Position numbers and translations under genes: made by a program. The notes below the pieces were generated by a model. That model was not told the origin of the DNA, did not search any database, and saw nothing but the letters and a program-made list of their open reading frames with translations. From the NCBI GenBank assembly GCA_031556455.1, contig JAVBSX010000084.1:1-51869 (forward strand): a DNA stretch of 51,869 nt. Direction: 5' to 3'. Below are positions 1 to 25,800 of this stretch, in pieces (positions within the stretch are counted from its first letter, which is position 1; every line of letters begins with the position of its first letter). The DNA comes from Thermoguttaceae bacterium. GTDB taxonomy: Bacteria; Planctomycetota; Planctomycetia; Pirellulales; Thermoguttaceae.

Positions 1-3000
1 ACCGTCGGCAGTTCCGACCAGAACATCGACCGGAGCGGCGGCTCGATCCAGCTCCTCGGCAATCCCCGGCACAAGGTGTTGATCACCTCCTATGCCGACG
101 AAACCGTCGGCCGCGACACCAACCCGCTGCAAACCAAACCGGACGGCGGAAACTGGGGCGGGATCGTGATCCGCAACGACCTCGATTACGAATTCATCAA
201 CAAATACACGGCCTCCAACTCTGCCAAGCCGCGCGAAGTGCTTGAAAAACAAGGCATCTTCCTCAACTATATCAACAATGCCGACCTCCGGTACGGCGGC
301 GGGGCGCTCAGCGCGACCGATAAGCTGAACTACGATCCGATTCACGTCGTCGATGCCCGACCGACCATCACCTTCAATACCATCACCTACAGCGCCAACG
401 CCGCGATCTCCGCCTCGCCGCGCAGTTTCGAGGAAACCCGTTTTCAAAACTGGGATCATACGACCCCTTACACGTTGGACTACACGCGGATCGGCCTTCA
501 CGTGCACGGCAATACCGTCGTCCGCAACGCGATCAACGGCCTCCTCGTCCAGGTCCGCACCCCCGTCGGACAGCAGATCCAAAAAATCGACGTCGCCGCC
601 CGATTCGACGACCTCGACATCGTTCACGTCCTTTCGGAAAACCTCACCCTCGCCGGGGCTCCCGGCGGCAACACCCTGGTCTCCGCGACGACCGAGGGGC
701 TTTGGTACGACCAGTCGACCCAACGCCTCTCCGTCGAATTCGATATTCGTTTAGACCAAAGATTCGAAGTGGACCATCCTGTGCTCAATTCGAGCAACCC
801 GATGCGGCCGACCGACCGCGATTACTTCTCGTTGAGCGACGGCGAAACCAAAGTCACCTTCGAATACAACATCGTCGATTTCGAGAGCGACAAGGTTTCC
901 AATATCCGCCGTGTCGCGACCGGACACGTCGCGATCGACATTCTCTCCAACGACACGCCCGAGGAAATCGCTCGCAAAACCGCCGCCGCGATCAACGCCG
1001 TCAATGCCAATAAAGAAGTTTGGGTCAACGCGGCCGGTGTCGCGAACCCGGACCCGGACGCTGGCAAAACCGCCAACTACCCTTACGCCAGATACCTGAT
1101 CGGCAACCCGAGCGATCCGACCATCACACCGACCCAAAAACTGACGCCCAATCAGTTCAAGATCACCGCGACGTACACCGCCGGGTCCAACGGGATGATC
1201 CTCAAATCGACCGGCATCGGACTCAAGACCGACGGCATCCAGGCCGCGACCCCCGATCCGGCCGCGACCGCGACCGGCTTGGCCTATGACCCGGTTGCCC
1301 GGAAAATCAATTTCGATTTCCAGGACACGACCGATCCGGTCAAACCGGCCTCGGGCAATTATTCCTTCGCCCCGATCCGGCCCGTCGAAGGAGATTATTT
1401 CTCGATCTCCGATTACTCCAATATTTACGGCGAAACCAAGGTCTTCTTCGAATACAACTACATCGATTACTACAAACAGGACGTCACCAACCAGGGCCGC
1501 GTCGCTGCCAACCGCGTCGCGATCGACATCCTCACGACCGATACCGCCGAACAAATCGCCCAAAAAACCGCAGACGCGATCAACGCCGTCCGGACGAAAA
1601 TCGAAGTCTACGAAACGGTCAACGGAAAGCAGTATCCCCGCTATCTCGTCGGCGATCTCGGATTGGCTCGAAACCAATTCCGCATTACCGCGTCGCTCGA
1701 TACGACGACCGCGACGTTCAGTTCGACCGTGGGCCGTGAGGTCTTGACCGGCGTTCTTCTCCAAACCGCCAAGGATATCGACCCCAGCGATACGGAAACC
1801 GCCACCGATCTCGCGGTCAGCGGCATCCAACGCGTCCAGCCCGGCAACCTGCCCGGGATGCTCAAATCGCGTACCAACGGAACGCTGAACATCAGCCCCG
1901 GCATCATCGTCAAATCGAACAATGCCCGGATCGAACTCGAAATGGGGACCCAGCTCCTCGCCGAAGGGACCGTCGAGCAGCCGATCATTTTCACCTCGCT
2001 CTACGATACCCGTTACGGGGTCGGCGGGATCTACAAAACCGCCTCCAAAGGGGACGGCAGCGCCGTCGGAACCGTCCAGCCCGGCAACTGGGCCGGAATC
2101 TTCCAACTCCCCGATTCCAACTTGAGCATCGACCATGCCGTGATCGCCTATGCCGGCGGCAGTTCGCCGATCGACGGGGTTACCGCGAAATTCAATCCGA
2201 TCGAGATTCACGAGGCCGATGCGCGGATCGCGAACTCCCGATTCGAAAACAACATGGGCTCTTACGCCGGCGACCGGACCGGCCGCGGGGCGACCTCCCC
2301 CTCGGTCATTTACGTTCTCGGTTCTCAGCCGATCATTCTGCACAACACGTTTATCGACAATACGAACAACATTACCGACAGCGCGAGTTCCCTCGCCGTC
2401 ATCAGCATCAACGCCAACTCATTGACCGATGAGGTCGTGATCGACAAGGGCCGCAGTTCCGGGGCCCTCGACCGCAACCCGGCGTACGACGGCAACTACG
2501 GGCCGCTCGTCCGCGAAAACCGCTACACCAACAACTCGATCAACGGGATGATCGTTCGCGGCGAGGTTTTGACGACCGCCTCGACCTGGGACGACACCGA
2601 CATCGCCCATGTCCTGTTCTCGGAAATCATCGTCCCGAACTTCCATTCGACCGGCGGGCTGAAGCTCACAAGCGATGCGGGCAATTCCCTCATCGTCAAG
2701 CTCTTCGGTCAAAACGCCGGCTTTACGACCAGCGGCACTCCGCTCGAAACCGACGAGCGGATCGGCGGGGCGATGCAGGTCGTCGGCGTTCCCGGTTACC
2801 CGGTCGTTTTCACTTCCCTGCGGGACGATACCGTCGGAGCCGGTTTCGACTTGGCCGGAAAAGTGATGTATGACACCAACAATACGTACAAATACGATTC
2901 CGAGTCGAAGAAATGGAAAGAGACCGCTCCCTCCGCCGCCCCGGGCGACTGGCGCAGCATTAAATTCGCCAACTACAGCAACGATCGCAACGTCCTTGTC

Positions 3001-6000
3001 ATCAAGGAATATGAAAAGGCCGGAGACCTTCTCGATTCGAACGGCACCCCGGCGACGGCCCAGGATCTCGGCTATCTCGCTCCCGATATGAAGTCCGGAG
3101 ACGACGTCCGCCGGCTCGGCTTCGAAGTCAACGGCTCGATCCGCAGCGGCGGAACCGATCCGACCACCTTCCAGTTGCAGCCCGCCGAAGCCGATGTTTA
3201 CAAAATACACGCCGATTCCGGAACCGAAATGTGGATCGACATCGACTGGACCGGTCGTTCGCTCGATACGATCATCGAAATTCTCGACAAGGACGGCAAC
3301 ATCCTCGCTTCGTCCGACAGTTCCTTCTACGAAGGTCCGGACGCCTACGGCCGTTACATCAACCGCGTTTTCGACGCCCGCGGCGAAGAATACGATCACG
3401 GCAACACGACCAGTTTCGCCCGCGAGAACAACGCCTTCCCCATGAATAAAAGCATGTGGGCCCGCGCGCAGACCGGCGTTTCCGGAGCCGGGCGTTATAC
3501 CGACGCGGACGGGCTCATGTGGTATTATTACAACACGGCCGACGGGATCGGGTACAACGATCTCTACAGCACCAACGTGCGCGACGCCGGGCTGCGTTAC
3601 GTCGCCGAAGGGCCGGGCGATAAGGATTATTACATCCGCATCCGGAGCGTGCTCTCGATTTCCTGGGCCAATTCCCTGACCAGAGCATCCCACGGCAAAA
3701 CCTTCTACATCCAGGATGCCGACACCAAAGAGAAGGTGACGTACGAGCTCGATTTTGATTCGGCGGATTCCAGAATCTCCAATACGCCCAACTACATCTA
3801 CATCGGTCTCGGTTCGCTCAAGGCCGGGGAATCGTACGCGACGCGAATCGCCGCCGCGATCACCGAGCTTACGGCCAACACGAACAAGAGCGTGAGTGTT
3901 GCCGCGAAAGTGACGAAAACTTCGCTCGGTGACACCAACCCGACGATCGTCCTGGACGGCGTCAACCTGATTTTCAATCCGTGCGAAAGCGGTTTAGTGC
4001 TCCAGGAAAATTCCTCCGGGGCTTACCAATTGCAGGTCCGGCTTCAGGAAACCGACGAAATTCCCGGCTGCTCGGTCGCGTATGCCGACATCCGTTACGG
4101 GCTGCAGGGGATCGAAGTCTACGGTTTTCCGCAACATTCTCCAATCATGGGGGAGGTACAAAACCGTCCCAACCTCGACCTGCCAGGCGGCATGGGCAAG
4201 GGGACGTATTTGGGCAATCTCGTTCAATCGGACTTGGGAACCATTTCGGTGGGAGGATACCTGAGCAGTCTGAGCGACGTCGATTGGTACGTCTTTTCCA
4301 TGGACCCGACCGGCATGCAGTCGCATAGTGGTTCGACGCCGAACACGTTCCTTTGGCCTGCGATTTTCGACATCGATTACACCGACGGTCTGACCCGGCC
4401 GGACCTTTCGCTCTGGGTGTTCGATTCCCTCGGGCGTTTGATTTACATGGGCGGCGATTCGAACATCGCGGACGACCGGCCCGGTCCGAACACGGACATC
4501 AACATCCAAAAACTCGGAGCCGGTTCGGTCGGATCGTCGGATCCGTTCATCGGTCCGGCGCTGCTCGGTCCGACTTTGGGAGCGGAAGGCTCGGGATTGG
4601 TCGACGCCAGCGGCGAACCGATCACGCTGCCGGACGGCTCCTCGGTCGAACGGGCCTATTTCGTCGCCGTGACGAGCAAATACGCCGTTCCCGCGATCTT
4701 GAGCACGTTCCTGACGAAAGACTTTACGGCCAATGCCGCGACCCGGGTCGAACCGATCGACTCGATTTACCGCATCGCCGAGGAGCACGTCAACGGCGGC
4801 CAGAACACGGGCAACAGCGATATCGACGAAGGCCAGCAGCGGTTGACGCTTACGCCGGACGAATATCACTTGGGGGACGTCGTCTGTTACATCAGCGTCG
4901 AGTATCCGACCACGGGGCGTCCGGGAGATCCTGAGGGGACCAGCAAGGTTTACATGATCAATCCCTTTACCGGTGAGATCATCCTCGGTGGGAATACGAA
5001 TAAAATTCACCAGACCGGCTACGACATGTCCATGGCCCCGGACGGCCGCCTGTTGGCGTCCTATAACATCTTGGACCAATTTCACGTTTATGCCGTCGAT
5101 CAGTCCAAATACTCGAATACGTTTGCCTACGGAGGACGGGTCGACGGAACGATGGTCGACAGCGAATTGTATCCTTGTTGGTATAAGGATGGCGAGCTCG
5201 TAATCGAGGAGGTCGAAGATACGATTACGGGTTTTCAGCTGAACGCCTTGACGAGCAATCCCTACTTGTGGCTTGATATTCGCTCGCAAAGCGAAGAAAG
5301 TCATGATTATGCCGTCGAAAATTTGTCCGCCTATCCTTTTATCGGCTACTCCGTCGCGATCGGTAACATGCCGTGGGGCGACTATCCTCGCTATGGCTAT
5401 AGCGTGTATCCCTCGAATGCCAATGTCATGTACCTGCTGGATCCGAGCGGCTATGCGATCGATGCCATGTTCAGTAGCCGGAACGAACCCAAACCTGTTT
5501 CGGGAGTCGTTCCTTTTGCCATCTTCTATAACGGCGTGGATGGCCCTGTCGATTGGGATGGAAATCAGCTGTTCGCGAATGAATTCCAGAACGTCGGGGA
5601 AATCATCACCGGGACGACGTTCAGTGCCGATGGGAAAAGGCTCTTTGCCGGGACCAACTTCGGCGCGATTTACGAGATCAAGAACTGGGCTTCCCGCCGC
5701 TACGGTCATTATTATGAGCCTCCCGGCGACGGCCCGGAACAAAAAATCTATAGTACGGGTGGTGGTGCTACGCTTGATTTTCTCGGTTATGTTTTCGATG
5801 ACGAGGGCAACATTCTCCCGATCAGCGGTCTCGAGATGGGCCCGGAAACCGTCGAAGGGGGAATTTACAAAGACCTCCTTTTCGTCACCTCTCAGAAGAC
5901 GAGTTATTATTCGGGCGACAACGTACTGTTCAATTCCAGTGCCAGTTTCTCAAATACCGGTGACTCCAAGCTGGTGGCCGTCGATCCTTCGAAATTGGAT

Positions 6001-9000
6001 TCCGGCCTCGTGGCGAATATCCAAAGAAGTGGCAACAATTTCGTTTCCGGAAAGATCGTCAGTTCGTGGAACATCACCCTGCCGACCTCGCAAAATGCCG
6101 TTGGGCACGCTGACCTCACCGTCAGTCAGGCATTCCGGAATCTGGAGAATCTCATCTTCCAAATCACTTCGAACGGAGGAACGGTCAATACGATCAATAT
6201 TTCCACTTCCACTCCTGTTCCCAACCCTAACTACAATCCGTATCGACCTGCCGATCCCGTCTACAATGCGGAATATCTTTCGATACCGATCGCGAAAACC
6301 ACCGATCCCAGCAAACCGATCAATCCTTACACCAATTTCCCCTACGAGCTTTTGTTTTCGGCCAAGTATAATCCAAATTACTCGACCGAATTTCCCACGG
6401 ATCATTTCACGAATTCTCTCTATATTTATGCCGCGGCTCCGAACCCGCGGTACAACCCGGCGGTTGCGGAACACGAGGTCACCAACCCGCGGTATCTGCT
6501 CCAACCGACAGCGAATCCGACCTACGATCCGAACCAGCCGGACAACGAAGCGACCAACTGGCCTTATCTGTTTGCCAATGTCCCCAACCCTTATTTCAAT
6601 CCCAGTGCCGTGGAAGGCCCGGGCAATCCCCGTTACCTGCCGAATCCGCAACCTAACCCCGGTTTCGACAGCAGTCAGCCCGAGGATGTTTATTACAATC
6701 CCAAGTATTATTATGCTCCTCTCGTCAACGAGAATTATAAAAATGATGAACCGGCCGATCCCACCACGAATTGGCCTTACTTCGTGACTCCTTCCAAGAA
6801 TCCCGATTACAACCCCTCTCTGCCGGACAACACGCAAACCAACTGGCCTTACCTCTTTACACCTGATCTCAATCCTTACTACAACTCCGGACTGCCGGAA
6901 AATTATATCTACGATCGTGAGAATCCCGGCACATATAACCCGAAGTATATTACTTTACCCAGTAGCGAGCCCGTTCTGACTTGGGCGAGTGACCAACAAC
7001 TGGCGGAAAGAATCGTCGCGCAGGCCCGTGGATTCGGACTCACCACCACCGCCGTCAAAACGGGAAGTCACTGGCGCGTCGTATTCGAAGGCGTCGCGGA
7101 GATCGGCAACGAGACCCCTCGGTCTACTCTCGATATCCAGGAACCTTGGGAAAAGGCCAACAATCCCCTTGCGCCGATTTTCGTCAACGGACAAAAGGTG
7201 TTGACCCTGTTGAAAAACGACGGTTTGCCGGCGGACACCGCCCATAACAGCGTCGTCAGTATCACGTTCTCGAAGATGGATTACAACCTCTGGCACCGGA
7301 CCGGAACCGACGCCGATTTGGTCGGACCGACGGCAAGTCGTGTTCGTTCGATCACCGGTTTCGACACGCCGCCGGAACAGGAAGATTCGATGACCCATAA
7401 CGGGGCCGGGACGAGCTGGTACTTCGGTTTGGAGCCGGACAAATCCCCGAACCGCAATCCTTACGATGACGAGAGCACTCCCAACGCCAATTTATTGACG
7501 GACGATTATTTCGCATGGGGGGCCACCGCCTCCGGCTACACTCCGGCCGTTCTCAACGCGGTAGAGCCGAGGAACCTGACGGGGACCGACGTCAATATCG
7601 GTTCCTACGACATGCCCGGCGGAACTTATGGGGCTTTGACGTCCAGCACCTTCAGCCTTGCCGATTATTCCGCCGGCGACCGGCCGATGCTCTATTATTC
7701 CTACCGCTTCGACGCCGAAGGGACGCAGGACTTCCTCAATTACGGCGATGATGCGCTGATGGTGTACGTCTCGGCCGACGGCAAAAATTGGAAGCGGATT
7801 TCCGCATCCAACTACGATCTGTTCTCGGATCCGTCCAATAATTGGGAGATGACGCAGCCGGACAATTTCGTCACGCTCATCCAGGACAACCGTTGGCGGC
7901 AGGAACGGATCGACCTGAGCGAGTTCGCCGGCCAGACGAACGTCCGGATCAAATTCGTCTTCTCGACCGCCGGCGGGCAGATCGGCCTCGGCAAAGTCAA
8001 TCAGGCAGGAACGCTCCTGACCTCGGTCTCCGCCTCGCAGCTGTTCGACTCCCGCAACGGCGTCACTCAATTGCCGGACGGACATTACGACCATTTCCCG
8101 ACGCAGGGCAATGTGACTGCGAGCACGTTGAGCCCCAACAGTTCCACCTCCTACTTCGATTATTTCAATTCTAGTTCCGCGTTCGTCGTGAGAGATGGCG
8201 CCAAAAAAATCGACGGTACCAGTGATAACACACGGTTGAACACGTATTATACAACGGCCGCCGACGCCCTCGATTCGAGCGTCGTCTACCGTTATTCCCA
8301 GGGATACTCCCTTTACGTTCCGATCGCTACCGGCGGTCAGGGACAGGCGACGCTGACCGATTGGATCCAAGTCAACGATGAGAGAATCTACTTCGGTGAT
8401 CTGGTCGGCAACTCGACCGACAGTGATGAGGTCAAACTTCTCAAACTCCGGCTGCTCAACAGCGAAGAGTTTATGAACCTCCTGATCAACGCGGTCAACG
8501 AACGGGTTGATGGTGCGACGGCCAAACGTTACACACTGCACGGCGGGAATGCGTCCGTGTCGAATCCCTACTACGGACAACAGATTTACTTCGAAGGCGT
8601 CACTTTGCTGAAAACTTCACAGCCGACGAAGTATATCGTGACCGGCGATTCGCAGGATACGACGCTGGACGAAATCGCCGCGATGTCGAACGACCAGCTG
8701 CTTGCCTGGTTGAACGCCAACAGCCAAATCGGCAGCAACGCCATCGAGAACGCAGCTCGGTACAACAACGCCGTTCCGGTCCCGATTCGCGGGGACATGA
8801 CCGCCGAGCAGGTTGCCGGCAGCGTCGCCTTCATGGTCAACCTGACGATGAACGAGGATTTGAAGAACTATCTCCGCCTCAACCCGAACGCGACGATTGG
8901 CAGTGCTTGGACATCGCTCGATACGTATTACAATCTCGATGGGAATCTTGTGAACCTCGCGACGGATGCTCGTGGGAGTTACGACCCGAGAGAGCTGGTC

Positions 9001-12000: not shown

Positions 12001-15000
12001 AGCGATTTGGAGGCCGCATTCCCGAATCATGAACAATTGACCATTTGGATCGGCGGCACCGCCTTGTCCGTCGAGACGACGCAGATGATCGACGGAGTGA
12101 CGAGCACGGTCGACGCCGATACACTCGCCCAACGGGTGATCGACGCTCTGGCTGAAGCCAATATTCCCGGTACGGGAAGCGGCGTCGTTTCCGCGGAGCC
12201 GAAAATCGTCGACGGAGCCGTCGTCGGCTTGACGTTCGCCGAAGCGCAGTTCGTCCAGTGCGACAATTTCGATTTCGATATCACTTCGACGATCGGCGAG
12301 ACGAGCACGACCCGCAACGGCATCGCCGATCGGGCCGGCAATTCGCTCGAATGGAACCGCGCCAACGGCCAAACCTACTTTACCGTCGTCTTGGGCGGTT
12401 ACGATTACGGGGACGCGCCCGCGAGTTACCCGACCCTGAACGACAATAATCCGGCACGGCACATCGTATGGAACGGCTTCTGTCTCGGCAAAGGGGTGAC
12501 GGTCGAGCCCAACGGCCAACCGTCCAATCATCTGCTCGACTCGAACGGCAAACAGACGCACGGCGATCAATATGACGACGGCGTGAGTGCCCTCGACGGC
12601 GGGGAACTGGTTCTGACTCCCGGAAAAACGATCGAATTCACGATCAACGTTTCCGCGAAGAACGAAAACTTCAAACCGGATGCCGACGGTTACGTCGGAT
12701 TCGTCAATGCGTTTTTCGATTGGGACGACAGCGGCTCCTGGAACGATAACGGCAACGACGAGCGGATGGTCTGGATCGACGAAACCGGGGCCGAGCGGAC
12801 CGATCCGTTGCCGGTCAAACCGGGCGCCAACACGGTTAAGATCGTCGTCCCGAGCACGTATCGCGAAAACGGAACGACCAAGCTTCTTGAAGAAGGGGAG
12901 GTGTTCGCACGTTTCCGGCTCAGCTCGAAGGCGGAAGAAGTGAACGAAAAGGGCGAGAAAATCGGAACCCTCGGCCCGGGCGGTCTTGCGGCCGACGGCG
13001 AGGTCGAGGATTACAAGTTCGTCCTCGCCCTGCATCCGCGGTCTTACGGCGACGCTCCGAAAGGCACGTTCGTCAATCCCTACACCGAGAAAAACAAGAC
13101 CTACACCTATCCGGTGAGCAAGGCGGAAGGCGGAGCCTGGCACGCGACCGACATCAAGTACGGCATCGACGCGAGCGGCAAGGCGGTTCGTTACGACGCT
13201 TCCGTCGATCCGACGACCGAAAAATTCCGTGATCAGGGCGGCGCCGTCCATTTCGGCGTCTTGGCGCCTCTCCAGCGGCTCGACGCCTCCTACAACGCGA
13301 CCGCGACGGCCAACGCGACCGACGACGGCATCGATCTGAACAAAGGTTACGGCTCGCTCATGTTCGTCGACGGCGAAACGGCTCATGTCGAAATGACGGT
13401 CACCGTCCCGGATGCGCTCAAGGCCTACATGCAGGCCAACCCCAGTGCGAGAATTCATATCGCCGGCTGGTTCGATCTCAAGGGAACGGGAACCTGGGAC
13501 GCCAACTCGATCTCCGCGACCCAAACTTTAAGTTTAAGCGACCTGAGTAATGCCAAGCTCGTTCCGGGCACGACGGACCAATACTACGTAACGGTCGATG
13601 TCAAAATCCCGAAAGGCACGATCACCGCGAAGGGAATTTCCTTCGCCCGATTCCGGATCGCCACCTCCGACAACGGCATCTCCCCGATCCCGGGGCCCGG
13701 CGGTCCTTCCGAGACCGATACGCCCAAGGCGATCGACGGCGAGGTCGAGGATTACATGATCTACATGATGCCGTATCGGACGAACTACAGCGACGCGGAA
13801 GATCCGAGCACGCCGCTTGAAGATCGCGCGGTGCACCGGATTCCGGTCGATGACAACGGCAATCCGATTTATTACTACCTCGGCGATAAAGTCAACACGG
13901 GATTCGATCCGCGATTCCCCGAGGTCGTTTCCTCTTCGGAAAACGACAACGACGGCGTTACGATTCCGACCATGAACATCAACGGCGTCGATTACGCCGC
14001 GTTTATGGCGACGGGCACGACGACGATCATCGTCAACGCCTCGACCGCCGGTCGGCTCAGTTTCTGGATCGACACCAACGGCGACGGCGTTTACCAGGAA
14101 GACGAACGGATCACCGATCCCAAGACCGGCAACCCGTGGTTCGAGGTCAAGGCCGGACCTAACGAAATCCCCGTCACGCTTGATCATCCCGAGATTTTCG
14201 GCATGCTGGAAACCGGGGCCCGGTTCCGCTTCACCGATCCGACCGTCGATCATAACAACCTCAGGGCGACCGGGGAAACGAAAAACGGCGAAGTCGAGGA
14301 TTACGTCGTTTACGTGATCGGCGGGCACGCTTCCATTTCCGGGACGGTTTACAACGACGCCAACGGCGACGGCCAGCACGGCTGGGACGAGGTCGGGATC
14401 GGCGGTGCGACGGTTTACCTGCTCGATCAAAATATGAAAACGATCGACACTAAGACGACGGACGTCTACGGCGAATACGTTTTCGACGGACTTTATCCGA
14501 GCGTTTACTACGTCCGGATGGAACCTCTCGCCAAGCCGTGGGTGATGACCAATCCGGCGAACGGAACCAGCGGCAAAATCCAGTTGGGAGAAAACCAAGA
14601 GTACAACTACGTCGATTTCGGCAACTTCAAACCGGGAACCGTTTCGATCGGGGATGCGATCATCTCCGAAGGGAACAGCGGCTACAAAACCGTCGAGATT
14701 CCGGTCTACCTGACCGGCTCGTTCGGGGCGGCGACGCAAATTACCGTCAAAACCTCGGACGGAACCGCGATTTCCGGACAGGATTATCTGGGCGGAACGG
14801 CAACGTATACCTTCGATCCGCAGAGTACGCCTTCGACGACCTGGAACATTTCGACCGTTTCTTCCGGTCTGGGAACCGATTCCGGGCAGTACGATTCGAG
14901 CGTTTCCGGCAACACCCTCGCCTATGCTTCCAAGATCGGCTCGACCTGGCAGATCATGATCGAATCACTCGATGATCCGAGCGGCGTTTTCACGCTCACC

Positions 15001-18000
15001 AACAGCACCCGCGACAGCATCGCCCCGCAGGTCCTGCAGGTCGGCGACAGCGTCTACGTCGTCTGGTCCAGCTACAACGGAACGAATTACGAGGTGTACT
15101 ACTCTTACGGGAGTTCCAAAGACCTTTCGAGTTTGAGGCAGAATATTCACCGCCTCAATGCCGGAACGATCGGTAACAACTCGGACAACCTGACCCCGCA
15201 GATTTCCGTCGACTCGAGCGGCAAGGTGTTCGTCGCCTGGTGCGTCAAAGACGCGACCGGGAATTCGAGCATCGTTTGCCTGGAACCGAGCGAATACAAC
15301 CTCGACAACAACGCTATCGCCTTACCGATTAAATACAACGGGGACGCGTATTCCGGGAAGGTGAGCCGGATGTTGCTCGACGGCCAAACGGTCGCCTGGA
15401 GCACTTCCGGTTCGGAAATTTACGTTTCCAGCATCCAAAACGGCAACCGCCAGACCGTGTTGGCCTCCAACGGCGGCACGAACCAGAACCTGCGGATCAA
15501 GAACGGGATCGCGGCCTGGGAATATCAAACCGGCAGCGGTTCGAGCATGATTCGCGAAATCGCGGTGTACAACGTCCAATACGGCAAACTGCTCTTCCTG
15601 GCCCAGGACGATGCCTACTTGACGGCCCCCGATGTCAACGACAAATGGGTCGTTTGGCAATCGGAAACCCGACTCGCCTCGGGCAACCGTTCGAGATACG
15701 AAATCTACTCCCTCAACCTCGAATCGGTTTTCGGGGCGCCCGACTCGGACAAGTGGAGTTCGTACCGGAACGGGACCGGCTTCCTTGACGCGTACACTCC
15801 GGAATATGCGGAATTCAACAGCACGGGTTTGACGACGGTTCAAGTCAACACCCGCGAGGATTTGAACAACCTGCTCTTCTCGGACCCGAGCGCGTCTCTC
15901 TCGGTTCAATTCGTCGATGAGACCTTGTTCCGCGAGTTCATGCAGAAAAAATCGCTCACGGAAACCAGTTATTCCTGGATCATGGCGGTTCCGCCCACGG
16001 AATTTTTGCCGGCGGCCCTTCCGAACAAGGAGAACCTCGACATCGTGATCAACGGCGTTACGGTTTCCGTGCCGACCGTCAAGGAAGTTCCGAATCCGGA
16101 TTATGATCCGGACGCGGAAGTGGACCCGAACGCGGAACCGGTCAGCGAAACCATCATGACCTGGCTCACCGATGAGGAACTGGTCGATGCGATCGTCAAG
16201 GCCGTAACCGATGCGAAAATCGCCGGAGAGTTGGAAGAGACGCTTGTTACCGCGGAAGTGAAAACCGAAGGGACACGGTTCGGTGTCGAGTTCAAGAACG
16301 CCAAGACCGCCGTTCCCCAAAACAGCGCTTTTAGCGTGATCACCTACATGTCGATCCCGACGACGGGCGATCTCTCCCGGGTTTTCCCACAAAAGGAAGA
16401 CCTGAAGATCACCGTCAACGGCACGGTGGTGACCGTTCCGACCGTGAAGGTCGATCCGAACGATCCGGAAGCGACCGTTTGGCTCAGCGACACGGAACTG
16501 GCCGATACGATCATCGCGGCCGTCAACGCTCTCAAAATCCCGGGAGGTTTGAATTCCTCCGTAACCGCGAAACGCTACACCGATTCCCTCGGCTACGTTT
16601 ACGTCGATTTCTCGAACGTGACGAGCGTCGTTCCCGATCACGCGGCCTTGTCCGTCGCCTCCGACCAGGAAGAGACCGAGGTTCCGGAAACCGAAAACTA
16701 CGGCAAGAACGTCAAGGAAGCGATCCTGTTGACCGATCTTACCAAATCGGTCAGTATCGCCCACGCGAACCTGGAAAGTCTGGTCTTCGCCGGTGCGGTC
16801 AACGCTCCGATCACGATCGCCGCCGGGGCGACCCCGGCCCTGCAGTTCGTGCAATTCAACGAGGATATCAACGCGACGGTTACGGCTAACCTTCCCGCTG
16901 CCAAGTCGTTGTTCTTCGGCGGGGACGTCAATGCCGCCGTCAACATCACCAGCCCGACGCTCAAGGATGTCGGATTCTTCGGAACCGTTGCCGCCGAGAT
17001 GAACTTCCGGGGCTCGACGTTGCACTCCCTGATCAACCTCGGAACGATCCGGGCTCCGATCACGGCCAACTGCCAGACGTTCGTCAATTACGGAACCGTT
17101 TACGACGGAAGCGTCTTCGCCGGTACCGGCGTCCAATCGATCATCGTCTTCGACATGATCGATTACACGATGATCGCCAAATTGCCGGAAGTCGTCAATC
17201 GTCCCGAGCTCCAGATGTTCCTGACCGATGTCGTGAAACCGTCGCTCGTCTCCTATTCCTCGTATTATGCCGATAACGTTGCTCCGCGACTGAACGGCAA
17301 CCAGGTCGTTTGGAGAGGCTCGGAAACGTTACGATCGGATTATTGGTACGCGTACCATGCCGACCTCGCCAATCCGATGACGTCGACGTCGATCGTTTCC
17401 GGCAACGGCTACTCCGCCTGGGCGCCGATCCTCTCCGAGAGTCGCGTCGTTTGGCGGGCCCAGGTCGGGACCAACTACTCGATCTTTACGGCGACGGCCA
17501 ACGCCCCGGTCGTCAAAGGAACCGTCAAGTTCCAGATCATCGGTGATACGATGGTTGAAGACGACGAATACTTTTACGTTGAAATCGTCGGAGCTTCGAT
17601 CATCGGGGAAAGCACCATCCCGGTCGATCCGAGCGATATCATCGGCGAAAAATCGAAGGGAATCGTTTGGATCCTTAACGACGACGGGCCGTTGGACTAC
17701 GGCGATCTGCCGGCAACCTATAGCACGTTGGTCAAGGACGACGGCGCCCGGCACATGGTCAACATGTATGACCCACTCGCTCTATTCGATCCGCGACGCA
17801 ACCCGAACACCTCGGTCAACGTCGATACCGAAAACGACGGCATCCCGAGTTCGGGAGCCGACGGAGACGATTTGAACACCATCATCGGTCGCAACGACGA
17901 GCAAGGGGTCTTCTTCGGCTATTATAACGAAGAGACGAAAAAATGGGTCGAAAGCCCTTGGGTCCCGGGCCAAAAGGTGACGATGCAGGTTTACGTGACC

Positions 18001-19434
18001 AAGGATTGTTACCTCAACGCCTTTGCCGATTGGAACCAGAACGGCGTCTTCGGGAAACGAAATCTGGCTCAAGGGACCGTAGCCTATGATTCGCAGGAGC
18101 GTTTGGAAAACCTGTTCGACGACAAGACGCGACTCGATTCCCAGGGCTACAAATTGACGGAAGGACTCAACACGGTCACCTTCACGGTTCCGCGAACCGC
18201 GAAGTCCGGAACGACCTATGCCCGATTCCGCGTCAGTTCGGCGGGCGGCCTTTCGTTCTTCGGGCAGGCCGCCGACGGCGAGGTCGAGGATTACAAGGTC
18301 AACGTCGCCCAGGGAAGCACGTCCTCTTCGCCGGTCAGTCTCGATAAGGCGACCGGAACGTTGACGATCACCGGTTCCGTCCTCCGGGACGAAATCGTGA
18401 TCCGACGGTTGGACCAGAACACCAATCGCCTGAACAAGCTCTCCGTGATGTACAACGGAACGTACTACACGTACAATCCCGAAGACGTCAAAACGATCAA
18501 TTACGACGGAATTTACGGTTCCGATATCGTGACGGTCTACGGTTTGGCTTCGGATGCGGAGCATGTCACGATGCGGCCTTTCAATACGGATTCCTCGAAA
18601 GAGGGAACGGTCATTGTCGGGACAGGATTGACGATCAATCTCAAGAATGCTCCAAACGTCGTTTTCGACGGCGGGGCGGCCGTGAGCGGTCAAACCAAAG
18701 CCTTGGATTCGGCTGATTTGTATGATTCCTCCGACAGCGACCGATTGACGATGCGACCGAACCAGACGACGATGTCCGGTTATTCCTACTCGAATACGAT
18801 CCTCAACGTGCAGAACGTTTTCGCTTATTCGGAAAACGGCGGTTACGACGAGGTTTGGATGTACGGGATGGGGGCCGCCAACAACACCCTGACGATGACG
18901 CCGGGTTCGGCGACGTTCAGCAACACCGGATACCAGGCCAAGGCGGAAGGCTTCCGTTCGATACACGCGTACAACGTCGCCGGAAGCAAAAACAACGTCA
19001 TGACCTTTGATGGGACGAAGGTGAGCAATATCGACCTGACCTTTACCCGCAGTACGAATCCGCTTTCGAACATTTTGGCCGGGACGTACGGTTCGATCTC
19101 GCGGCCGACGAGCATCGAGTTGATCGGATTCGATCAACAGACCGTTCGGGGCGACGTCGGTTCGCAGATCAACGTCTTCGGGACGATACAGAGCGAAAAA
19201 TTGCTCGGTCGAAAAGGTTCGGACGGTCTGTTCAACTCGCCGCCCCAGACGGTCGATAGTCTGCGGTTTTCGCAGATCAACCCGACTTCGGACGACGACT
19301 ACATGTTGGAACTCCTCGCCTTCGAGCATGTAACAGCCCGAAGCGTCGGCTCGACACCGAACAAGAAGGACGTCGCGACCGATTTGGCGATCCAGTTGGC
19401 CAACGGCCTCCTGTTCGAAGGAGAATGGATGTAA
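1..19434 (+). CDS. Giant secreted/cell-surface multidomain protein, 5'-partial (>6,452 aa): parallel beta-helix blocks, PPC-like domains, MAM/jelly-roll-like domain, 4 GEVED-type domains, SdrD-B/Cna-B-like domain, 2 Calx-beta-like domains, propeller-like blades
   Basis: Frame 1 is open from base 1 (no stop before the GTG at 76 used by the ORF track) to TAA 19432-19434, with G/C third-position bias throughout. Motifs read by eye: PbH1-like turns (IANSRFENN, LHNTFIDNT, RYTNNSINGMIV approx 2220-2560; INNIFAYNG, IVNNTFFGY, IMNNIFSN approx 10400-11000) closed by DPLFVNP..SPAIDAG..DIGAID (11330-11600). PPC-like DVDWY/EADVYKI signatures (approx 3050-3660 and 4190-4520). DYGDAP...GEVEDY units (12398-13015, 13043-13755, 13780-14304, 17691-18295). 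GTVYNDANGDG..YGEYVF (14335-14560). Calx-beta-like segments (14635-14820, 17510-17690). Confidence 0.9.
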   Translation, partial: TVGSSDQNIDRSGGSIQLLGNPRHKVLITSYADETVGRDTNPLQTKPDGGNWGGIVIRNDLDYEFINKYTASNSAKPREVLEKQGIFLNYINNADLRYGGGALSATDKLNYDPIHVVDARPTITFNTITYSANAAISASPRSFEETRFQNWDHTTPYTLDYTRIGLHVHGNTVVRNAINGLLVQVRTPVGQQIQKIDVAARFDDLDIVHVLSENLTLAGAPGGNTLVSATTEGLWYDQSTQRLSVEFDIRLDQRFEVDHPVLNSSNPMRPTDRDYFSLSDGETKVTFEYNIVDFESDKVSNIRRVATGHVAIDILSNDTPEEIARKTAAAINAVNANKEVWVNAAGVANPDPDAGKTANYPYARYLIGNPSDPTITPTQKLTPNQFKITATYTAGSNGMILKSTGIGLKTDGIQAATPDPAATATGLAYDPVARKINFDFQDTTDPVKPASGNYSFAPIRPVEGDYFSISDYSNIYGETKVFFEYNYIDYYKQDVTNQGRVAANRVAIDILTTDTAEQIAQKTADAINAVRTKIEVYETVNGKQYPRYLVGDLGLARNQFRITASLDTTTATFSSTVGREVLTGVLLQTAKDIDPSDTETATDLAVSGIQRVQPGNLPGMLKSRTNGTLNISPGIIVKSNNARIELEMGTQLLAEGTVEQPIIFTSLYDTRYGVGGIYKTASKGDGSAVGTVQPGNWAGIFQLPDSNLSIDHAVIAYAGGSSPIDGVTAKFNPIEIHEADARIANSRFENNMGSYAGDRTGRGATSPSVIYVLGSQPIILHNTFIDNTNNITDSASSLAVISINANSLTDEVVIDKGRSSGALDRNPAYDGNYGPLVRENRYTNNSINGMIVRGEVLTTASTWDDTDIAHVLFSEIIVPNFHSTGGLKLTSDAGNSLIVKLFGQNAGFTTSGTPLETDERIGGAMQVVGVPGYPVVFTSLRDDTVGAGFDLAGKVMYDTNNTYKYDSESKKWKETAPSAAPGDWRSIKFANYSNDRNVLVIKEYEKAGDLLDSNGTPATAQDLGYLAPDMKSGDDVRRLGFEVNGSIRSGGTDPTTFQLQPAEADVYKIHADSGTEMWIDIDWTGRSLDTIIEILDKDGNILASSDSSFYEGPDAYGRYINRVFDARGEEYDHGNTTSFARENNAFPMNKSMWARAQTGVSGAGRYTDADGLMWYYYNTADGIGYNDLYSTNVRDAGLRYVAEGPGDKDYYIRIRSVLSISWANSLTRASHGKTFYIQDADTKEKVTYELDFDSADSRISNTPNYIYIGLGSLKAGESYATRIAAAITELTANTNKSVSVAAKVTKTSLGDTNPTIVLDGVNLIFNPCESGLVLQENSSGAYQLQVRLQETDEIPGCSVAYADIRYGLQGIEVYGFPQHSPIMGEVQNRPNLDLPGGMGKGTYLGNLVQSDLGTISVGGYLSSLSDVDWYVFSMDPTGMQSHSGSTPNTFLWPAIFDIDYTDGLTRPDLSLWVFDSLGRLIYMGGDSNIADDRPGPNTDINIQKLGAGSVGSSDPFIGPALLGPTLGAEGSGLVDASGEPITLPDGSSVERAYFVAVTSKYAVPAILSTFLTKDFTANAATRVEPIDSIYRIAEEHVNGGQNTGNSDIDEGQQRLTLTPDEYHLGDVVCYISVEYPTTGRPGDPEGTSKVYMINPFTGEIILGGNTNKIHQTGYDMSMAPDGRLLASYNILDQFHVYAVDQSKYSNTFAYGGRVDGTMVDSELYPCWYKDGELVIEEVEDTITGFQLNALTSNPYLWLDIRSQSEESHDYAVENLSAYPFIGYSVAIGNMPWGDYPRYGYSVYPSNANVMYLLDPSGYAIDAMFSSRNEPKPVSGVVPFAIFYNGVDGPVDWDGNQLFANEFQNVGEIITGTTFSADGKRLFAGTNFGAIYEIKNWASRRYGHYYEPPGDGPEQKIYSTGGGATLDFLGYVFDDEGNILPISGLEMGPETVEGGIYKDLLFVTSQKTSYYSGDNVLFNSSASFSNTGDSKLVAVDPSKLDSGLVANIQRSGNNFVSGKIVSSWNITLPTSQNAVGHADLTVSQAFRNLENLIFQITSNGGTVNTINISTSTPVPNPNYNPYRPADPVYNAEYLSIPIAKTTDPSKPINPYTNFPYELLFSAKYNPNYSTEFPTDHFTNSLYIYAAAPNPRYNPAVAEHEVTNPRYLLQPTANPTYDPNQPDNEATNWPYLFANVPNPYFNPSAVEGPGNPRYLPNPQPNPGFDSSQPEDVYYNPKYYYAPLVNENYKNDEPADPTTNWPYFVTPSKNPDYNPSLPDNTQTNWPYLFTPDLNPYYNSGLPENYIYDRENPGTYNPKYITLPSSEPVLTWASDQQLAERIVAQARGFGLTTTAVKTGSHWRVVFEGVAEIGNETPRSTLDIQEPWEKANNPLAPIFVNGQKVLTLLKNDGLPADTAHNSVVSITFSKMDYNLWHRTGTDADLVGPTASRVRSITGFDTPPEQEDSMTHNGAGTSWYFGLEPDKSPNRNPYDDESTPNANLLTDDYFAWGATASGYTPAVLNAVEPRNLTGTDVNIGSYDMPGGTYGALTSSTFSLADYSAGDRPMLYYSYRFDAEGTQDFLNYGDDALMVYVSADGKNWKRISASNYDLFSDPSNNWEMTQPDNFVTLIQDNRWRQERIDLSEFAGQTNVRIKFVFSTAGGQIGLGKVNQAGTLLTSVSASQLFDSRNGVTQLPDGHYDHFPTQGNVTASTLSPNSSTSYFDYFNSSSAFVVRDGAKKIDGTSDNTRLNTYYTTAADALDSSVVYRYSQGYSLYVPIATGGQGQATLTDWIQVNDERIYFGDLVGNSTDSDEVKLLKLRLLNSEEFMNLLINAVNERVDGATAKRYTLHGGNASVSNPYYGQQIYFEGVTLLKTSQPTKYIVTGDSQDTTLDEIAAMSNDQLLAWLNANSQIGSNAIENAARYNNAVPVPIRGDMTAEQVAGSVAFMVNLTMNEDLKNYLRLNPNATIGSAWTSLDTYYNLDGNLVNLATDARGSYDPRELVELFKVESQTLERTMRLDVLRNSLNDDVKSASFTPSSMGSGTTAQMTLVGKAVVSYTQNGKTKSGGMAVQTTELQGANQSDRYNVVKDYSKATLYGVDPDGTVRRATDNAHGGVMIDNIIIGAAERGEMVSYVSYDNSTGAGTVKVETGAGAMMAGFLTLADAKLNGNSVIPVGQEAFTPYVTNRVPETTVQFGAYQLEIRRGAETVDYYPSWTNPTASYANLISTIHTNERMTDGITLVTPLASEIYHGQKFSLSDGVNKIDFCFLADHLPQAATGSAEKILFNQSDSVYAIASKIVAAINKAYAEKKFKVSASLFTNGTLIDLFDATDFKNGGLEAIPLDASGNSVALDSEEYNDWFLRNGEGGKPIKHIIYGPVHETRSSFDYNGKTDAYESYYAYLDPLTGNVVPIREEQYSGGSVLARFIDRSLDWNDPNYAHSAFGSDLANVSRLYIDTWNGSLRRGDTNTVREKGQLNIIGSSFMAIDGFGIYMLPVELTLEDTAPGKFFNQMAQPGGVINGNEPVIDAEGNARLGGSWVPGVAIINNIFAYNGLGQFNNELGGGIALLGLEGYVPFVRIVNNTFFGYAEERSGQIVNQQLGIGIAVGQNTTPTIMNNIFSNLMAGIMLFEIEDGDINTIGNWNSTMEPVVALANVFKNNGINQPTGIGDVEFDKYLSAKNWSLSFPSDLKAALPNGKPLILQVNGTTLTVETTQTVDEVTSTVDAATLAERVIAALNEADVPGTVSAQPKLNNGVVVGLTFYGALLVQCDNTNFATAPSAEDPLFVNPSIQKRNFYLVENSPAIDAGRESLKERESWYNRYVQNYGIPDSTIYAPTTDFYGQIRKSDTETDHSGGGGSHPFVDIGAIDRVDKVKPTASLLKPIDNDTNDRNPVDYDIFLVNAVLDQFIVQLNDLGIGIDDMTVADDRGNVYENVVTILEQGWDNVNQAFYVRKLVLGTDYFANYNAANDQIYLVPTKGRWNSNATYTIILDNDAMPQWELNFPSDLEAAFPNHEQLTIWIGGTALSVETTQMIDGVTSTVDADTLAQRVIDALAEANIPGTGSGVVSAEPKIVDGAVVGLTFAEAQFVQCDNFDFDITSTIGETSTTRNGIADRAGNSLEWNRANGQTYFTVVLGGYDYGDAPASYPTLNDNNPARHIVWNGFCLGKGVTVEPNGQPSNHLLDSNGKQTHGDQYDDGVSALDGGELVLTPGKTIEFTINVSAKNENFKPDADGYVGFVNAFFDWDDSGSWNDNGNDERMVWIDETGAERTDPLPVKPGANTVKIVVPSTYRENGTTKLLEEGEVFARFRLSSKAEEVNEKGEKIGTLGPGGLAADGEVEDYKFVLALHPRSYGDAPKGTFVNPYTEKNKTYTYPVSKAEGGAWHATDIKYGIDASGKAVRYDASVDPTTEKFRDQGGAVHFGVLAPLQRLDASYNATATANATDDGIDLNKGYGSLMFVDGETAHVEMTVTVPDALKAYMQANPSARIHIAGWFDLKGTGTWDANSISATQTLSLSDLSNAKLVPGTTDQYYVTVDVKIPKGTITAKGISFARFRIATSDNGISPIPGPGGPSETDTPKAIDGEVEDYMIYMMPYRTNYSDAEDPSTPLEDRAVHRIPVDDNGNPIYYYLGDKVNTGFDPRFPEVVSSSENDNDGVTIPTMNINGVDYAAFMATGTTTIIVNASTAGRLSFWIDTNGDGVYQEDERITDPKTGNPWFEVKAGPNEIPVTLDHPEIFGMLETGARFRFTDPTVDHNNLRATGETKNGEVEDYVVYVIGGHASISGTVYNDANGDGQHGWDEVGIGGATVYLLDQNMKTIDTKTTDVYGEYVFDGLYPSVYYVRMEPLAKPWVMTNPANGTSGKIQLGENQEYNYVDFGNFKPGTVSIGDAIISEGNSGYKTVEIPVYLTGSFGAATQITVKTSDGTAISGQDYLGGTATYTFDPQSTPSTTWNISTVSSGLGTDSGQYDSSVSGNTLAYASKIGSTWQIMIESLDDPSGVFTLTNSTRDSIAPQVLQVGDSVYVVWSSYNGTNYEVYYSYGSSKDLSSLRQNIHRLNAGTIGNNSDNLTPQISVDSSGKVFVAWCVKDATGNSSIVCLEPSEYNLDNNAIALPIKYNGDAYSGKVSRMLLDGQTVAWSTSGSEIYVSSIQNGNRQTVLASNGGTNQNLRIKNGIAAWEYQTGSGSSMIREIAVYNVQYGKLLFLAQDDAYLTAPDVNDKWVVWQSETRLASGNRSRYEIYSLNLESVFGAPDSDKWSSYRNGTGFLDAYTPEYAEFNSTGLTTVQVNTREDLNNLLFSDPSASLSVQFVDETLFREFMQKKSLTETSYSWIMAVPPTEFLPAALPNKENLDIVINGVTVSVPTVKEVPNPDYDPDAEVDPNAEPVSETIMTWLTDEELVDAIVKAVTDAKIAGELEETLVTAEVKTEGTRFGVEFKNAKTAVPQNSAFSVITYMSIPTTGDLSRVFPQKEDLKITVNGTVVTVPTVKVDPNDPEATVWLSDTELADTIIAAVNALKIPGGLNSSVTAKRYTDSLGYVYVDFSNVTSVVPDHAALSVASDQEETEVPETENYGKNVKEAILLTDLTKSVSIAHANLESLVFAGAVNAPITIAAGATPALQFVQFNEDINATVTANLPAAKSLFFGGDVNAAVNITSPTLKDVGFFGTVAAEMNFRGSTLHSLINLGTIRAPITANCQTFVNYGTVYDGSVFAGTGVQSIIVFDMIDYTMIAKLPEVVNRPELQMFLTDVVKPSLVSYSSYYADNVAPRLNGNQVVWRGSETLRSDYWYAYHADLANPMTSTSIVSGNGYSAWAPILSESRVVWRAQVGTNYSIFTATANAPVVKGTVKFQIIGDTMVEDDEYFYVEIVGASIIGESTIPVDPSDIIGEKSKGIVWILNDDGPLDYGDLPATYSTLVKDDGARHMVNMYDPLALFDPRRNPNTSVNVDTENDGIPSSGADGDDLNTIIGRNDEQGVFFGYYNEETKKWVESPWVPGQKVTMQVYVTKDCYLNAFADWNQNGVFGKRNLAQGTVAYDSQERLENLFDDKTRLDSQGYKLTEGLNTVTFTVPRTAKSGTTYARFRVSSAGGLSFFGQAADGEVEDYKVNVAQGSTSSSPVSLDKATGTLTITGSVLRDEIVIRRLDQNTNRLNKLSVMYNGTYYTYNPEDVKTINYDGIYGSDIVTVYGLASDAEHVTMRPFNTDSSKEGTVIVGTGLTINLKNAPNVVFDGGAAVSGQTKALDSADLYDSSDSDRLTMRPNQTTMSGYSYSNTILNVQNVFAYSENGGYDEVWMYGMGAANNTLTMTPGSATFSNTGYQAKAEGFRSIHAYNVAGSKNNVMTFDGTKVSNIDLTFTRSTNPLSNILAGTYGSISRPTSIELIGFDQQTVRGDVGSQINVFGTIQSEKLLGRKGSDGLFNSPPQTVDSLRFSQINPTSDDDYMLELLAFEHVTARSVGSTPNKKDVATDLAIQLANGLLFEGEWM
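685..1830 (+). repeat. Tandem duplication of a ~190-aa unit inside the giant ORF (unit 1 approx 685-1260, unit 2 approx 1261-1830)
   Basis: Both units run TGL(W/A)YD...DYFS(L/I)SD..GETKV(T/F)FEYN..VAIDIL(S/T)(N/T)DT(P/A)E(E/Q)IA(R/Q)KTA(A/D)AINAV..YP..RYL(I/V)G..NQF(K/R)ITA. Nucleotide similarity is visible, e.g. 821-1010 versus 1393-1590. Confidence 0.8.
6211..6960 (+). repeat. Degenerate Pro/Asn/Tyr-rich repeat region of the giant protein (10 NPxY tetrapeptides, 3 TNWPY(L/F) units)
   Basis: Translation contains NPNY (x2), NPRY (x3), NPTY, NPKY (x2), NPDY, NPYY plus NPYF. There are three copies of TNWPY(L/F)(F/V)..P..NP.Y(F/N/Y) at approx 6550, 6765 and 6835. Confidence 0.85.
11032..11304 (+). 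repeat. Internal repeat R1 of giant ORF (WSLSFPSDL...VQCDN)
   Basis: About 60% aa identity by eye to R2, with clear nucleotide similarity (ttcccgagcgatttg.., gtcgagacgacgcag.., acgagcacggtcgacgcc.., gtccagtgcga). Confidence 0.85.
11983..12266 (+). repeat. Internal repeat R2 of giant ORF (WELNFPSDL...VQCDN), 951 nt downstream of R1
   Basis: Same module as 11032-11304, four codons longer (95 versus 91 aa; extra residues around the GTGSGVVSA segment). Confidence 0.85.
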
Positions 19435-19442
19435 TACGACGC

Positions 19443-19517
19443 AAACAGCAGCCCGAAGCGTCGGCGCCGGGTTCATCCGATTGGAAAACCCGGCGCTGAC
19501 GCTTCGGGCTGCTGTTT
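19443..19517 (+). terminator. Near-perfect 31-bp-arm hairpin followed by a T-rich tract, 8 nt after the giant ORF stop; also a member of REP family F1
   Basis: Left arm aaacagcagcccgaagcgtcggcgccgggtt (19443-19473), loop catccgattggaa, right arm aacccggcgctgacgcttcgggctgctgttt (19487-19517). One G-T position in the stem, then ttttgttgtt. Confidence 0.55.
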
Positions 19518-19609
19518 TGTTGTTGATTCGATCGTGTCCTTGTTCCCTTCGGCATTCGTGTTAAAATGAAACGGATTTTTCCAATGAATTTTACACGTTT
19601 TCTCGAAGC

Positions 19610-25423: not shown

Positions 25424-25490
25424 GGGGATTTTCAGGAACAAAATGCGGGATCGGATCAAAAAACGAGGGATATCATAATTTATTTGTACT

Positions 25491-25623: not shown

Positions 25624-25800
25624 CGTATTGTTAACGAAAAACGACTGCCCCGCATTCTAGTCGATTCCTTTCCTGATTTCAATCACGCAAGAAAATGGAC
25701 AGTATTTTTTCGCTAAGCGATACGACCGGCAAAAGCCCAAATTCTTTGATTTCCGGGGAAGCGAAAGGCCGATAGAACATTTGTTTTATTGTTCAAACAG

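Follow-up and report, generated by a model that had tools for sequence, protein, structure and literature searches.

The giant genes of Planctomycetota, for which the work of Reva and Tummler of 2008 is reportedly a source, are the closest described systems to the gene analysed here. Kohn et al. (2016, PMC5177795) found genes longer than 5 kb in all 29 planctomycete genomes and genes longer than 20 kb in 15 of the 29, the largest being 36,239 bp. Amaral and Devos (2024, PMC11573180) placed Planctomycetota among the phyla most enriched in proteins longer than 5,000 amino acids (aa), and a review (PMC12673574) likewise puts the phylum among those most enriched in huge proteins. Giant genes are thus a documented trait of Planctomycetota, and the gene described here is a further member of this known class. 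It lies at the start of a 51,869-nucleotide stretch of contig JAVBSX010000084.1 (assembly GCA_031556455.1, Thermoguttaceae bacterium), and this whole stretch is called the window. The 3' 87% of a single gene, which measures about 22.3 kb in full and comes from a Thermoguttaceae-like planctomycete (Pirellulales), occupies bases 1-19434, and the encoded protein belongs to a conserved, often multi-copy colinear family of mosaic proteins in Pirellulales and Thermoguttaceae. The original prediction, which had been made from the DNA letters, proposed a single gene that continues upstream and consists of extracellular-type modules, and this part stands. Some of its module names do not, and its statement that proteins of this size are rare is untrue for Planctomycetota (PMC5177795, PMC11573180).

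The gene shares with the described planctomycetal giant genes the phylum, the size class (>5 kb, >5,000 aa), the extracellular-type domains and a predicted surface role, and like them it does not encode a polyketide synthase or nonribosomal peptide synthetase, which was ruled out because no synthase domains were among the Pfam matches. It differs from them in being a mosaic of mostly unique domains instead of periodic cadherin, Big or dockerin arrays, and the colinear family to which it belongs, with its metzincin/PPC head, beta-helix blocks, split jelly-roll, GEVED units and C-terminal 47-aa repeats, is not described in the papers found. GEVED is a domain associated with fibrillar adhesins (Barringer et al. 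2023, PMC10952558), and four above-threshold GEVED domains, an SdrD_B stalk-type domain and a very large size are common to the giant protein and the CshA-type fibrillar adhesins. In contrast to those adhesins, the giant has no CshA_NR2 match in its 6,477 aa (E <= 1, sub-fragments included), no periodic stalk but just a few diverged internal duplications, and no LPxTG, hydrophobic or other known anchor, and its host is a diderm with a planctomycete-type envelope. A periodic fibrillar adhesin was ruled out by the lack of a periodic stalk, and a type IX secretion, PEP-CTERM or LPxTG cargo by the lack of such a C-terminus in the window protein. Giant surface proteins are thought to shape the attachment of planctomycetes to particles and algae and their capture of polymers; the present locus adds one member and leaves the general picture of planctomycete giant proteins unchanged. 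The gain is a domain map for a colinear family of 6,000-7,500 aa in hundreds of Pirellulales genomes, together with a widespread C-terminal repeat domain, which curated libraries lack and which is strongly associated with the known N-terminal export motif.

The giant gene is real and undivided. Frame +1 is free of stops over bases 1-19431 (6,477 codons) and closes with a stop codon at 19432-19434. The chance of such a run at the base composition of the open reading frame (ORF) is about 1e-100, and the longest open run in 200 shuffled sequences was 343 codons, which bears out the predicted uninterrupted ORF of more than 19.4 kb. The GTG at base 76, from which the listed ORF of 6,452 aa is counted, is merely the earliest start codon that the window contains: the frame is already open at base 1, and the alignments with orthologues begin at residue 1 of the window protein, upstream of this GTG. 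The GC content at the third codon position (GC3) of frame 1 was 0.64-0.79 versus 0.37-0.45 at the second position in all 1.5-kb bins, so the coding signal is continuous along the ORF. The long ORFs on the antisense strand, 13527-8620 among them, are shadows of the giant gene. The concern that repeats might have been collapsed in assembly is largely answered: Tandem Repeats Finder reported a 37-bp array only, the best dispersed DNA repeats within the ORF had 72-79% identity, and since no internal DNA repeat exceeded 79%, collapse or expansion is unlikely. Directly past the stop codon stands a hairpin (folding energy -78.4 kcal/mol, z = -11 versus shuffles), and since this strong hairpin and its U-tract adjoin the stop, the giant gene appears to have its own terminator ahead of thiC (19610). 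The Rfam scan recovered the hairpin solely as a generic long hairpin, by matches to miRNA models. An A-tract on its 5' side mirrors the U-tract in the style of a bidirectional terminator.

Two full-length orthologues from independent assemblies, P0031 (7,194 aa) and P0032 (6,685 aa), were found by an exhaustive HMMER search using the last 373 aa, and both are colinear with residues 1-6476 of the window protein at 37-55% identity. Window residue 1 corresponds to residue 996 of P0031 and to residue 917 of P0032. Since the two orthologues extend further N-terminally by 995 and 916 residues, about 920-1,000 codons are missing from the window and the full product would have about 7,400 aa, in agreement with the prediction that the gene is longer than shown. 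P0032, the gene of locus L001, is NCBI MGL6227137.1, 'GEVED domain-containing protein [Thermoguttaceae bacterium]'. Two distant members, P0045 (6,637 aa) and P0121 (7,169 aa), keep the same block order through the C-terminal domain.

A profile of the first 228 aa detected at least 516 related loci, with one genome taken per GTDB species. The best 80 were all from metagenome-assembled genomes (MAGs) of Planctomycetota (Thermoguttaceae, Pirellulaceae, Pirellulales) at 43-74% identity, and for the first 1,200 aa the named homologues were all from Planctomycetota, the best being from Thermoguttaceae with 57% identity. Among the 80 fetched loci, block A typically lies 750-1,550 codons past the ORF start, the conserved blocks come in the same order, and in most loci the ORF continues for more than 3,500 codons beyond block A, past the end of the fetched DNA. 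Several genomes in the GTDB scan carry at least two paralogues. Family members were also seen in MAGs labelled Blastopirellula marina, Aureliella and Thermogutta. No conserved operon partner or neighbour was found among the 80 family loci. In the closest orthologues, a divergent esterase gene resembling PETase and platelet-activating factor acetylhydrolase lies directly upstream of the giant gene (L081:2307-3770; L082:7481-9301, which is the same gene as L001:4736-6553; L047:2913-4532). It is the sole locally conserved neighbour seen, and the corresponding position in the source genome falls outside the window. A very large ORF stands directly upstream of the family gene in 8 loci.

Table 1. 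Features of the giant gene and its 3' flank (bases in window coordinates; aa, residues of the window protein)
Feature	Residues (aa)	Bases	Strand	Remarks
Giant gene, 3' part	1-6477	1..19434	+	6,477 codons + stop; about 2.8-3.0 kb of the 5' end outside the window
Block A	1-228	1..684	+	Cut by the window edge; beta-helix-like; terminal motif FDDxDIVHVL
Tandem units of ~190 aa	233-611	697..1833	+	Variable insertion site between blocks A and B
Block B	612-1000	1834..3000	+	Right-handed beta-helix; paralogue of block A; motif WDDTDIVHVL
PPC-like beta-sandwich 1	1040-1350	3118..4050	+	Split by type I module at aa 1223-1324 (HMM E = 1.5e-17)
Block S4	1335-1690	4003..5070	+	PPC-like unit 2 with DVDWY motif, followed by the initial blades of a probable propeller
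N/P/Y-rich low-complexity insert	2045-2330	6133..6990	+	12 NP.[YF] motifs; lineage-specific
Jelly-roll-like domain and block S6	2385-2665 (jelly-roll-like)	7153..10035	+	Last strand MIDNIIIGAAERGEMV at aa ~3115-3130
Third right-handed beta-helix and immunoglobulin-like stretch	3455-3995	10363..11985	+	Closing motif PLFV..A.GNFY...S.AID
Second type II module	4005-4094	12013..12282	+	61% identity to first type II module
Three GEVED units in a row	4133-4343, 4346-4590, 4593-4772	12397..14316	+	Motifs at aa 4333, 4580 and 4763
SdrD_B-like and Calx-beta	4778-4857 and 4896-4951	14332..14856	+	Pfam 47-52 bits and 25-31 bits
Poorly assigned region	4960-5895	14878..17685	+	Weak PQQ_2 propeller signal at aa 5130-5230
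Fourth GEVED unit	5896-6103	17686..18309	+	Pfam GEVED at aa 6004-6101, E = 1.5e-14
C-terminal domain	6105-6477	18313..19431	+	Beta-solenoid; 47-aa repeats at aa 6173-6328; tail ...DLAIQLANGLLFEGEWM
Intrinsic-terminator-like hairpin		19441..19527	+	Perfect 31-bp stem directly past the stop, then U-rich tract

Small recurrent alpha/beta modules sit within or between the larger domains of the giant protein (Table 1). The type I module is about 90 aa long, with the consensus DGxxFxIxDGxxxVxFEF...(I/V)AxxIAxAIN...VxA. It occurs here in five copies (aa 264-358, 455-556, 1223-1324, 2909-2985, which is partial, and 3240-3330) and in 5-13 copies in the other full-length members. The first two copies lie one in each tandem unit (module hidden Markov model E = 1e-23 to 1e-25), and the last sits in block S6. 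A low-confidence AlphaFold2 (AF2) model gave a local secondary structure of b-b-b-alpha with pLDDT 61-77, and the PDB profile search gave FliD, flagellin and tail-sheath at E = 0.03-0.3, which are weak and unproven leads. The type II module occurs in four copies (aa 3688-3773, 4005-4094, 5338-5446 and 5460-5552), the last two of them inside the poorly assigned region. If this arrangement is true, the family would be a clear case of evolution by the nesting of small alpha/beta modules in the loops of beta-sandwiches and beta-helices.

Blocks A and B share the motif (F/W)DDxDIVHVL, and block A was present in all 80 fetched loci and block B in 74-77 of them. Pfam Beta_helix matched block B in 17 of 40 relatives, with no match of the window copy at E = 0.1. 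The third beta-helix was matched in relatives by Beta_helix (15 of 16), NosD (10 of 16) and DUF5123 (9 of 16), and the window copy escapes Pfam, probably because the first type II module interrupts it; a PDB profile of this helix gave tailspike at E = 0.07, an unproven lead. Both predicted beta-helix blocks therefore hold at family level only. The two predicted ~190-aa units that separate blocks A and B were confirmed as duplicates with 42% identity (aa 233-434 versus 426-611); they were found in only 5-17 of the 80 loci, some relatives having one unit and others a different insert. In P0004, P0006, P0007, P0009, P0012, P0014 and others, an fn3-like insert with the motif GxYxYxxTxVDxxGxES...RR(I/L)YRS, sometimes duplicated, replaces the type I units. 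The first PPC-like assignment was supported by a Pfam PPC signal at aa 1064-1118 of 20-23 bits, which is below the gathering score of 25.9, and PPC matched 8 of 10 family members, the position within each protein being unspecified. Block S4 is conserved in 51-71 of the 80 loci, and its motif points to a PPC-like unit followed by the probable start of a propeller.

The insert rich in N, P and Y, which the original prediction had recognised by its NPxY-rich repeats, was present in none of the 80 loci and is not in P0031 or P0032. The GC content dips to 0.51 in the bin 5001-7000 and frame-1 GC3 to 0.64 in 6001-7500, both coinciding with this segment. The GC dip and the lack of the segment in every relative suggest that it was recently acquired or expanded. 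The block at aa 2385-2665 has the conserved motifs DYNLWH, PGGAxGSL and WRQxRIDLSxFAG..LRFxF. The strand that would close this domain (GxYIDDIIIGFAERGEMV) comes only 11 aa further on in L063, 150-765 aa further on elsewhere and about 455 aa further on here, and the distance from S5 to S6 ranged over 556-1434 aa in 24 loci. These conserved motifs argue for a jelly-roll-like domain whose last strand is set off by a variable nested insertion. The name MAM, which had been offered for it together with jelly-roll, is not supported by any Pfam or PDB match. The stretches that had been called unnameable consist mostly of nested insertions and recurrent small modules, not of serial unknown domains, and the largest of them would be mostly explained because the nested insertion splits the jelly-roll-like domain.

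Pfam matched GEVED in four stretches with 111.8 bits summed against a gathering score of 24.4, and the four GEVED units, the SdrD_B-like domain and the first Calx-beta domain of the prediction were all recovered. Other names were not confirmed: the second Calx-beta gave no Pfam match and a BLAST of E = 2.1 against the first copy, the solenoid-like repeats gave no periodicity signal, and the propellers gave sub-threshold PD40 and PQQ_2 matches only. From aa 5745 onward the sequence is conserved with distant family members. The giant had no NCBIfam match at E <= 0.01 and, as a whole window protein in phmmer, no PDB sequence at E <= 0.1; PDB sequence and profile searches with blocks A, B, S4 and S5 gave no relative. 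A word-index homologue search returned GEVED matches only for aa 5280-6477 and zero matches for aa 2385-3480, though relatives of this segment exist.

The C-terminal domain of the protein is widespread. A search with the last 373 aa gave 696 cluster representatives at E <= 1e-3; among the best 150 of these, 84% have the domain ending no more than 120 aa from the C-terminus. Its acidic repeats contain much G and D (consensus GNDVATLYDSAGDDTF...). The consensus of the 47-aa repeat is GNDVATLYDSAGDDTFVATPTYATLSGSGYSNRASGFDSVTAYATAG, and at aa 6173-6328 two copies of it are clear and a third is marginal, which bears out the predicted triple repeat of about 45 aa for two units and marginally for the third. 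The extreme tail is conserved in the family, with the form ..DTK..(V/I)D(F/Y)xLxxxGxW.. and often ...GxWxD[VIL], and the giant terminates in FEGEWM. A confident AF2 model from a 17-row alignment was an all-beta solenoid (pLDDT 82.7, pTM 0.83), for which Foldseek found nothing significant in PDB or viral structures. Neither a Pfam model nor a PDB sequence or profile match was found for the domain, and in NCBIfam at E <= 1 three canonical repeat proteins gave none and the window's C-terminal domain a chance-level hit only. The genes directly upstream of the family gene at L030:3427-4605 and L018:3476-3871 end with the 47-aa-repeat domain, so cargoes bearing this domain can adjoin in the genome.

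At the other end of the protein, the orthologues start with MRFW(N/D)S.FG... and carry RKLALEQFENRELLS or RQLQMEQFEVREMLS about 45-60 residues in. This is a motif of the type RRLxxExLExRxLLA, which was reported for cell-surface proteins of Rhodopirellula baltica and believed to be a new signal for export (Studholme 2004, as cited in PMC8567305); in T. immobilis, 20 of 52 proteins with the export motif were detected by proteomics (Mahajan 2021, PMC8567305). The motif was present in 59 of the 66 family loci with a complete 5' part. As in the export-motif proteins of PF07595 (Planc_extracel), the orthologues combine RKLALEQFENRELLS/RQLQMEQFEVREMLS with the lack of a hydrophobic signal peptide: no hydrophobic h-region was found in their N-termini (maximum Kyte-Doolittle 0.67-1.23 in a 15-aa window), and the classical signal peptide that had been expected is replaced by the motif. 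They differ from PF07595 proteins in that the motif lies further from the start, its median position being 30 in other carriers, and the PF07595 model scored 12-18 bits on the orthologues, below its gathering score of 25.5, though the pattern fits. In 79 of the 134 proteins that start with M and carry the C-terminal domain, the motif lies within the first 150 aa, as compared to 0.66 of 134 in shuffles (0.5%), 0.23% of internal windows and 9 of 188 flanking ORFs.

Downstream of the motif, the relatives have a metzincin-like domain and then a PPC domain. The metzincin consensus in the family is AMHEIGHxLGLGH, Peptidase_M10 matched 5 of 10 members, and the complete zinc site HExxHxxGxx[HD] was found in 30 of 66 loci. 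P0031 (locus L081) and L047 retain an intact HEIGHCLG(F/L)(N/G)H, and VVRGIGFGIGLGY stands in its place in the nearest orthologue P0032 (L001/L082). This pattern across the family suggests repeated conversion to pseudo-proteases. Other members have alternative heads, namely a subtilase with P-domain, C25, or FG-GAP/integrin. No HExxH was found within the 6,477 aa of the window protein, and the orthologous site would fall upstream of the window. The giant's own N-terminus probably consists of the export motif, a metzincin-like head and a PPC domain, as judged from its orthologues.

The product has an extracellular character. The window protein is strongly acidic (785 D+E versus 457 K+R), its cysteine content is 0.19%, and no transmembrane segment was found in its 6,477 aa. 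The domains above threshold are GEVED, SdrD_B and Calx-beta, with PPC sub-threshold, and all of these are of extracellular type. We consider it probable that this single giant mosaic gene encodes a product which is exported and either displayed on the surface or released as a polymer-binding fibre. Export would follow the route of the proteins with the RRLxxExLExRxLLA motif, after which the protein would form a long non-periodic fibre that remains on the cell surface or is released from it. The PPC-like, jelly-roll-like (lectin-like) and beta-helix modules of this fibre would bind surfaces and substrates of a polymeric or particulate kind, and in paralogues with a retained zinc site the metzincin head would also cleave substrates. 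The conserved C-terminal solenoid with its ...GxW tail may serve export or anchoring, and the solenoid and tail are the best candidates for such an element.

In the papers and curated libraries searched, no description was found of the colinear family or of the C-terminal domain and its pairing with the N-terminal motif, and this pairing is the one potentially new point. As a tentative suggestion, which we hold with less than even confidence, the solenoid with its D[FY]xLxxxGxW tail would be an undescribed sorting module, and together with the N-terminal motif it would form a two-part signature of uncharacterised planctomycete secretion or anchoring substrates. The pathway would then possibly work like type I secretion, with the giant among its largest cargoes. 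If the pairing does mark a dedicated route of export or anchoring, it would provide a handle on planctomycete surface biology, with motifs to mutate and cargo to follow.

Several points weigh against the fibre reading. About 80% of the window protein is unmatched by Pfam, and the AF2 model of aa 1-1010 (pLDDT 45.6) was unusable. Neither of the two orthologues checked, P0031 and P0032, shares downstream synteny with the window, and no conserved secretion or anchoring genes adjoin the family genes in the 80 loci. The window is without the N-terminus, so that the export motif and the protease head of the giant are extrapolated from orthologues at 37-74% identity and should be read as predicted. 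Since the zinc-binding motif is gone from the nearest orthologue P0032, proteolysis is not shared by the whole family.

For the export step, the main rival is a mechanism like type I secretion, in which the giant would be a substrate resembling adhesins with repeats-in-toxin (RTX) and serralysins, the solenoid and tail serving as a calcium-dependent folding ratchet and signal and the N-terminal region as a retention element. The giant does resemble LapA, MpIBP and the RTX domain of CyaA in its size, its acidic C-terminal beta-solenoid repeats rich in G and D, its conserved extreme tail and its conserved N-terminal element, and relatives pair a metzincin head with a repeat domain at the C-terminus in the manner of serralysins. 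The orthologues lack a Sec-type hydrophobic N-terminus, and the top Foldseek hits of the C-terminal model were all RTX domains (7rah_E, 9cse, 6sus). However, these hits are not significant (best E = 8.6e-3, TM 0.22), and the giant is without nonapeptide repeats, HemolysinCabind and GGxGxDxUx being unmatched in it and in the canonical repeat proteins of the C-terminal family. Genes of a type I secretion system (ATP-binding cassette protein, membrane fusion protein and TolC) are absent from the 32 kb downstream, from the flanks of P0031 and P0032 and from the conserved neighbours of the 80 loci, and the literature interprets the N-terminal motif as an export signal. We regard this mechanism as unlikely.

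It is also quite improbable that the protein is mainly a secreted degradative enzyme, i.e., a long scaffold carrying a protease and/or polysaccharide lyase, which would be released for the breakdown of polymeric substrates and not for attachment. The metzincin, subtilase or C25 heads of relatives, the three beta-helix blocks of pectate-lyase/NosD type, and the setting of a polysaccharide degrader, with a GH106 rhamnosidase and an OprB porin nearby, would fit such a function. But about half of the family, the nearest orthologue included, has lost the zinc site, no catalytic family model of Pfam or NCBIfam was matched within the 6,477 aa, and beta-helices are as common in non-catalytic adhesins. 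An assembly chimera or a pseudogene region that mimics one ORF is very improbable: the window does begin inside the gene, where the contig is possibly broken, and giant genes fragment in MAG assemblies (most homologues of the first 1,200 aa are marked 'partial'), but the open frame itself, the uniform GC3, the low identity of the internal repeats, the same end-to-end domain order in two independent assemblies and the dedicated terminator after the stop all stand against it.

Beyond the surface-fibre candidate and its terminator, the window is an ordinary chromosomal region with genes for ThiC, RsmG, a GH106 rhamnosidase, an OprB porin, ApbE, YchF, Tex, an AcrB pump and a DUF6666 protein. Rfam detected no thiamine pyrophosphate riboswitch in 19435-19609, ahead of thiC (19610-20920), at its gathering scores or with the cutoff relaxed to E <= 1. 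The gene for the GH106 alpha-L-rhamnosidase (22070-25498, minus strand) adjoins that of the OprB-type carbohydrate porin (25781-27151, plus strand), and the two may be a small sugar-utilisation pair. An ORF of 889 aa at 34679-37348 (minus strand) has weak matches to thioredoxin/AhpC-TSA and to a beta-propeller of lambda-carrageenase type, and a long ORF on the opposite strand (34793-36667) has no matches. The AcrB-type resistance-nodulation-division pump lies at 40.5-43.8 kb, and it is adjoined by two large genes at 43907-48537 (minus strand), a 699-aa ORF with a weak HypA-like zinc-ribbon and the 778-aa DUF6666 protein, whose family is planctomycete-associated.

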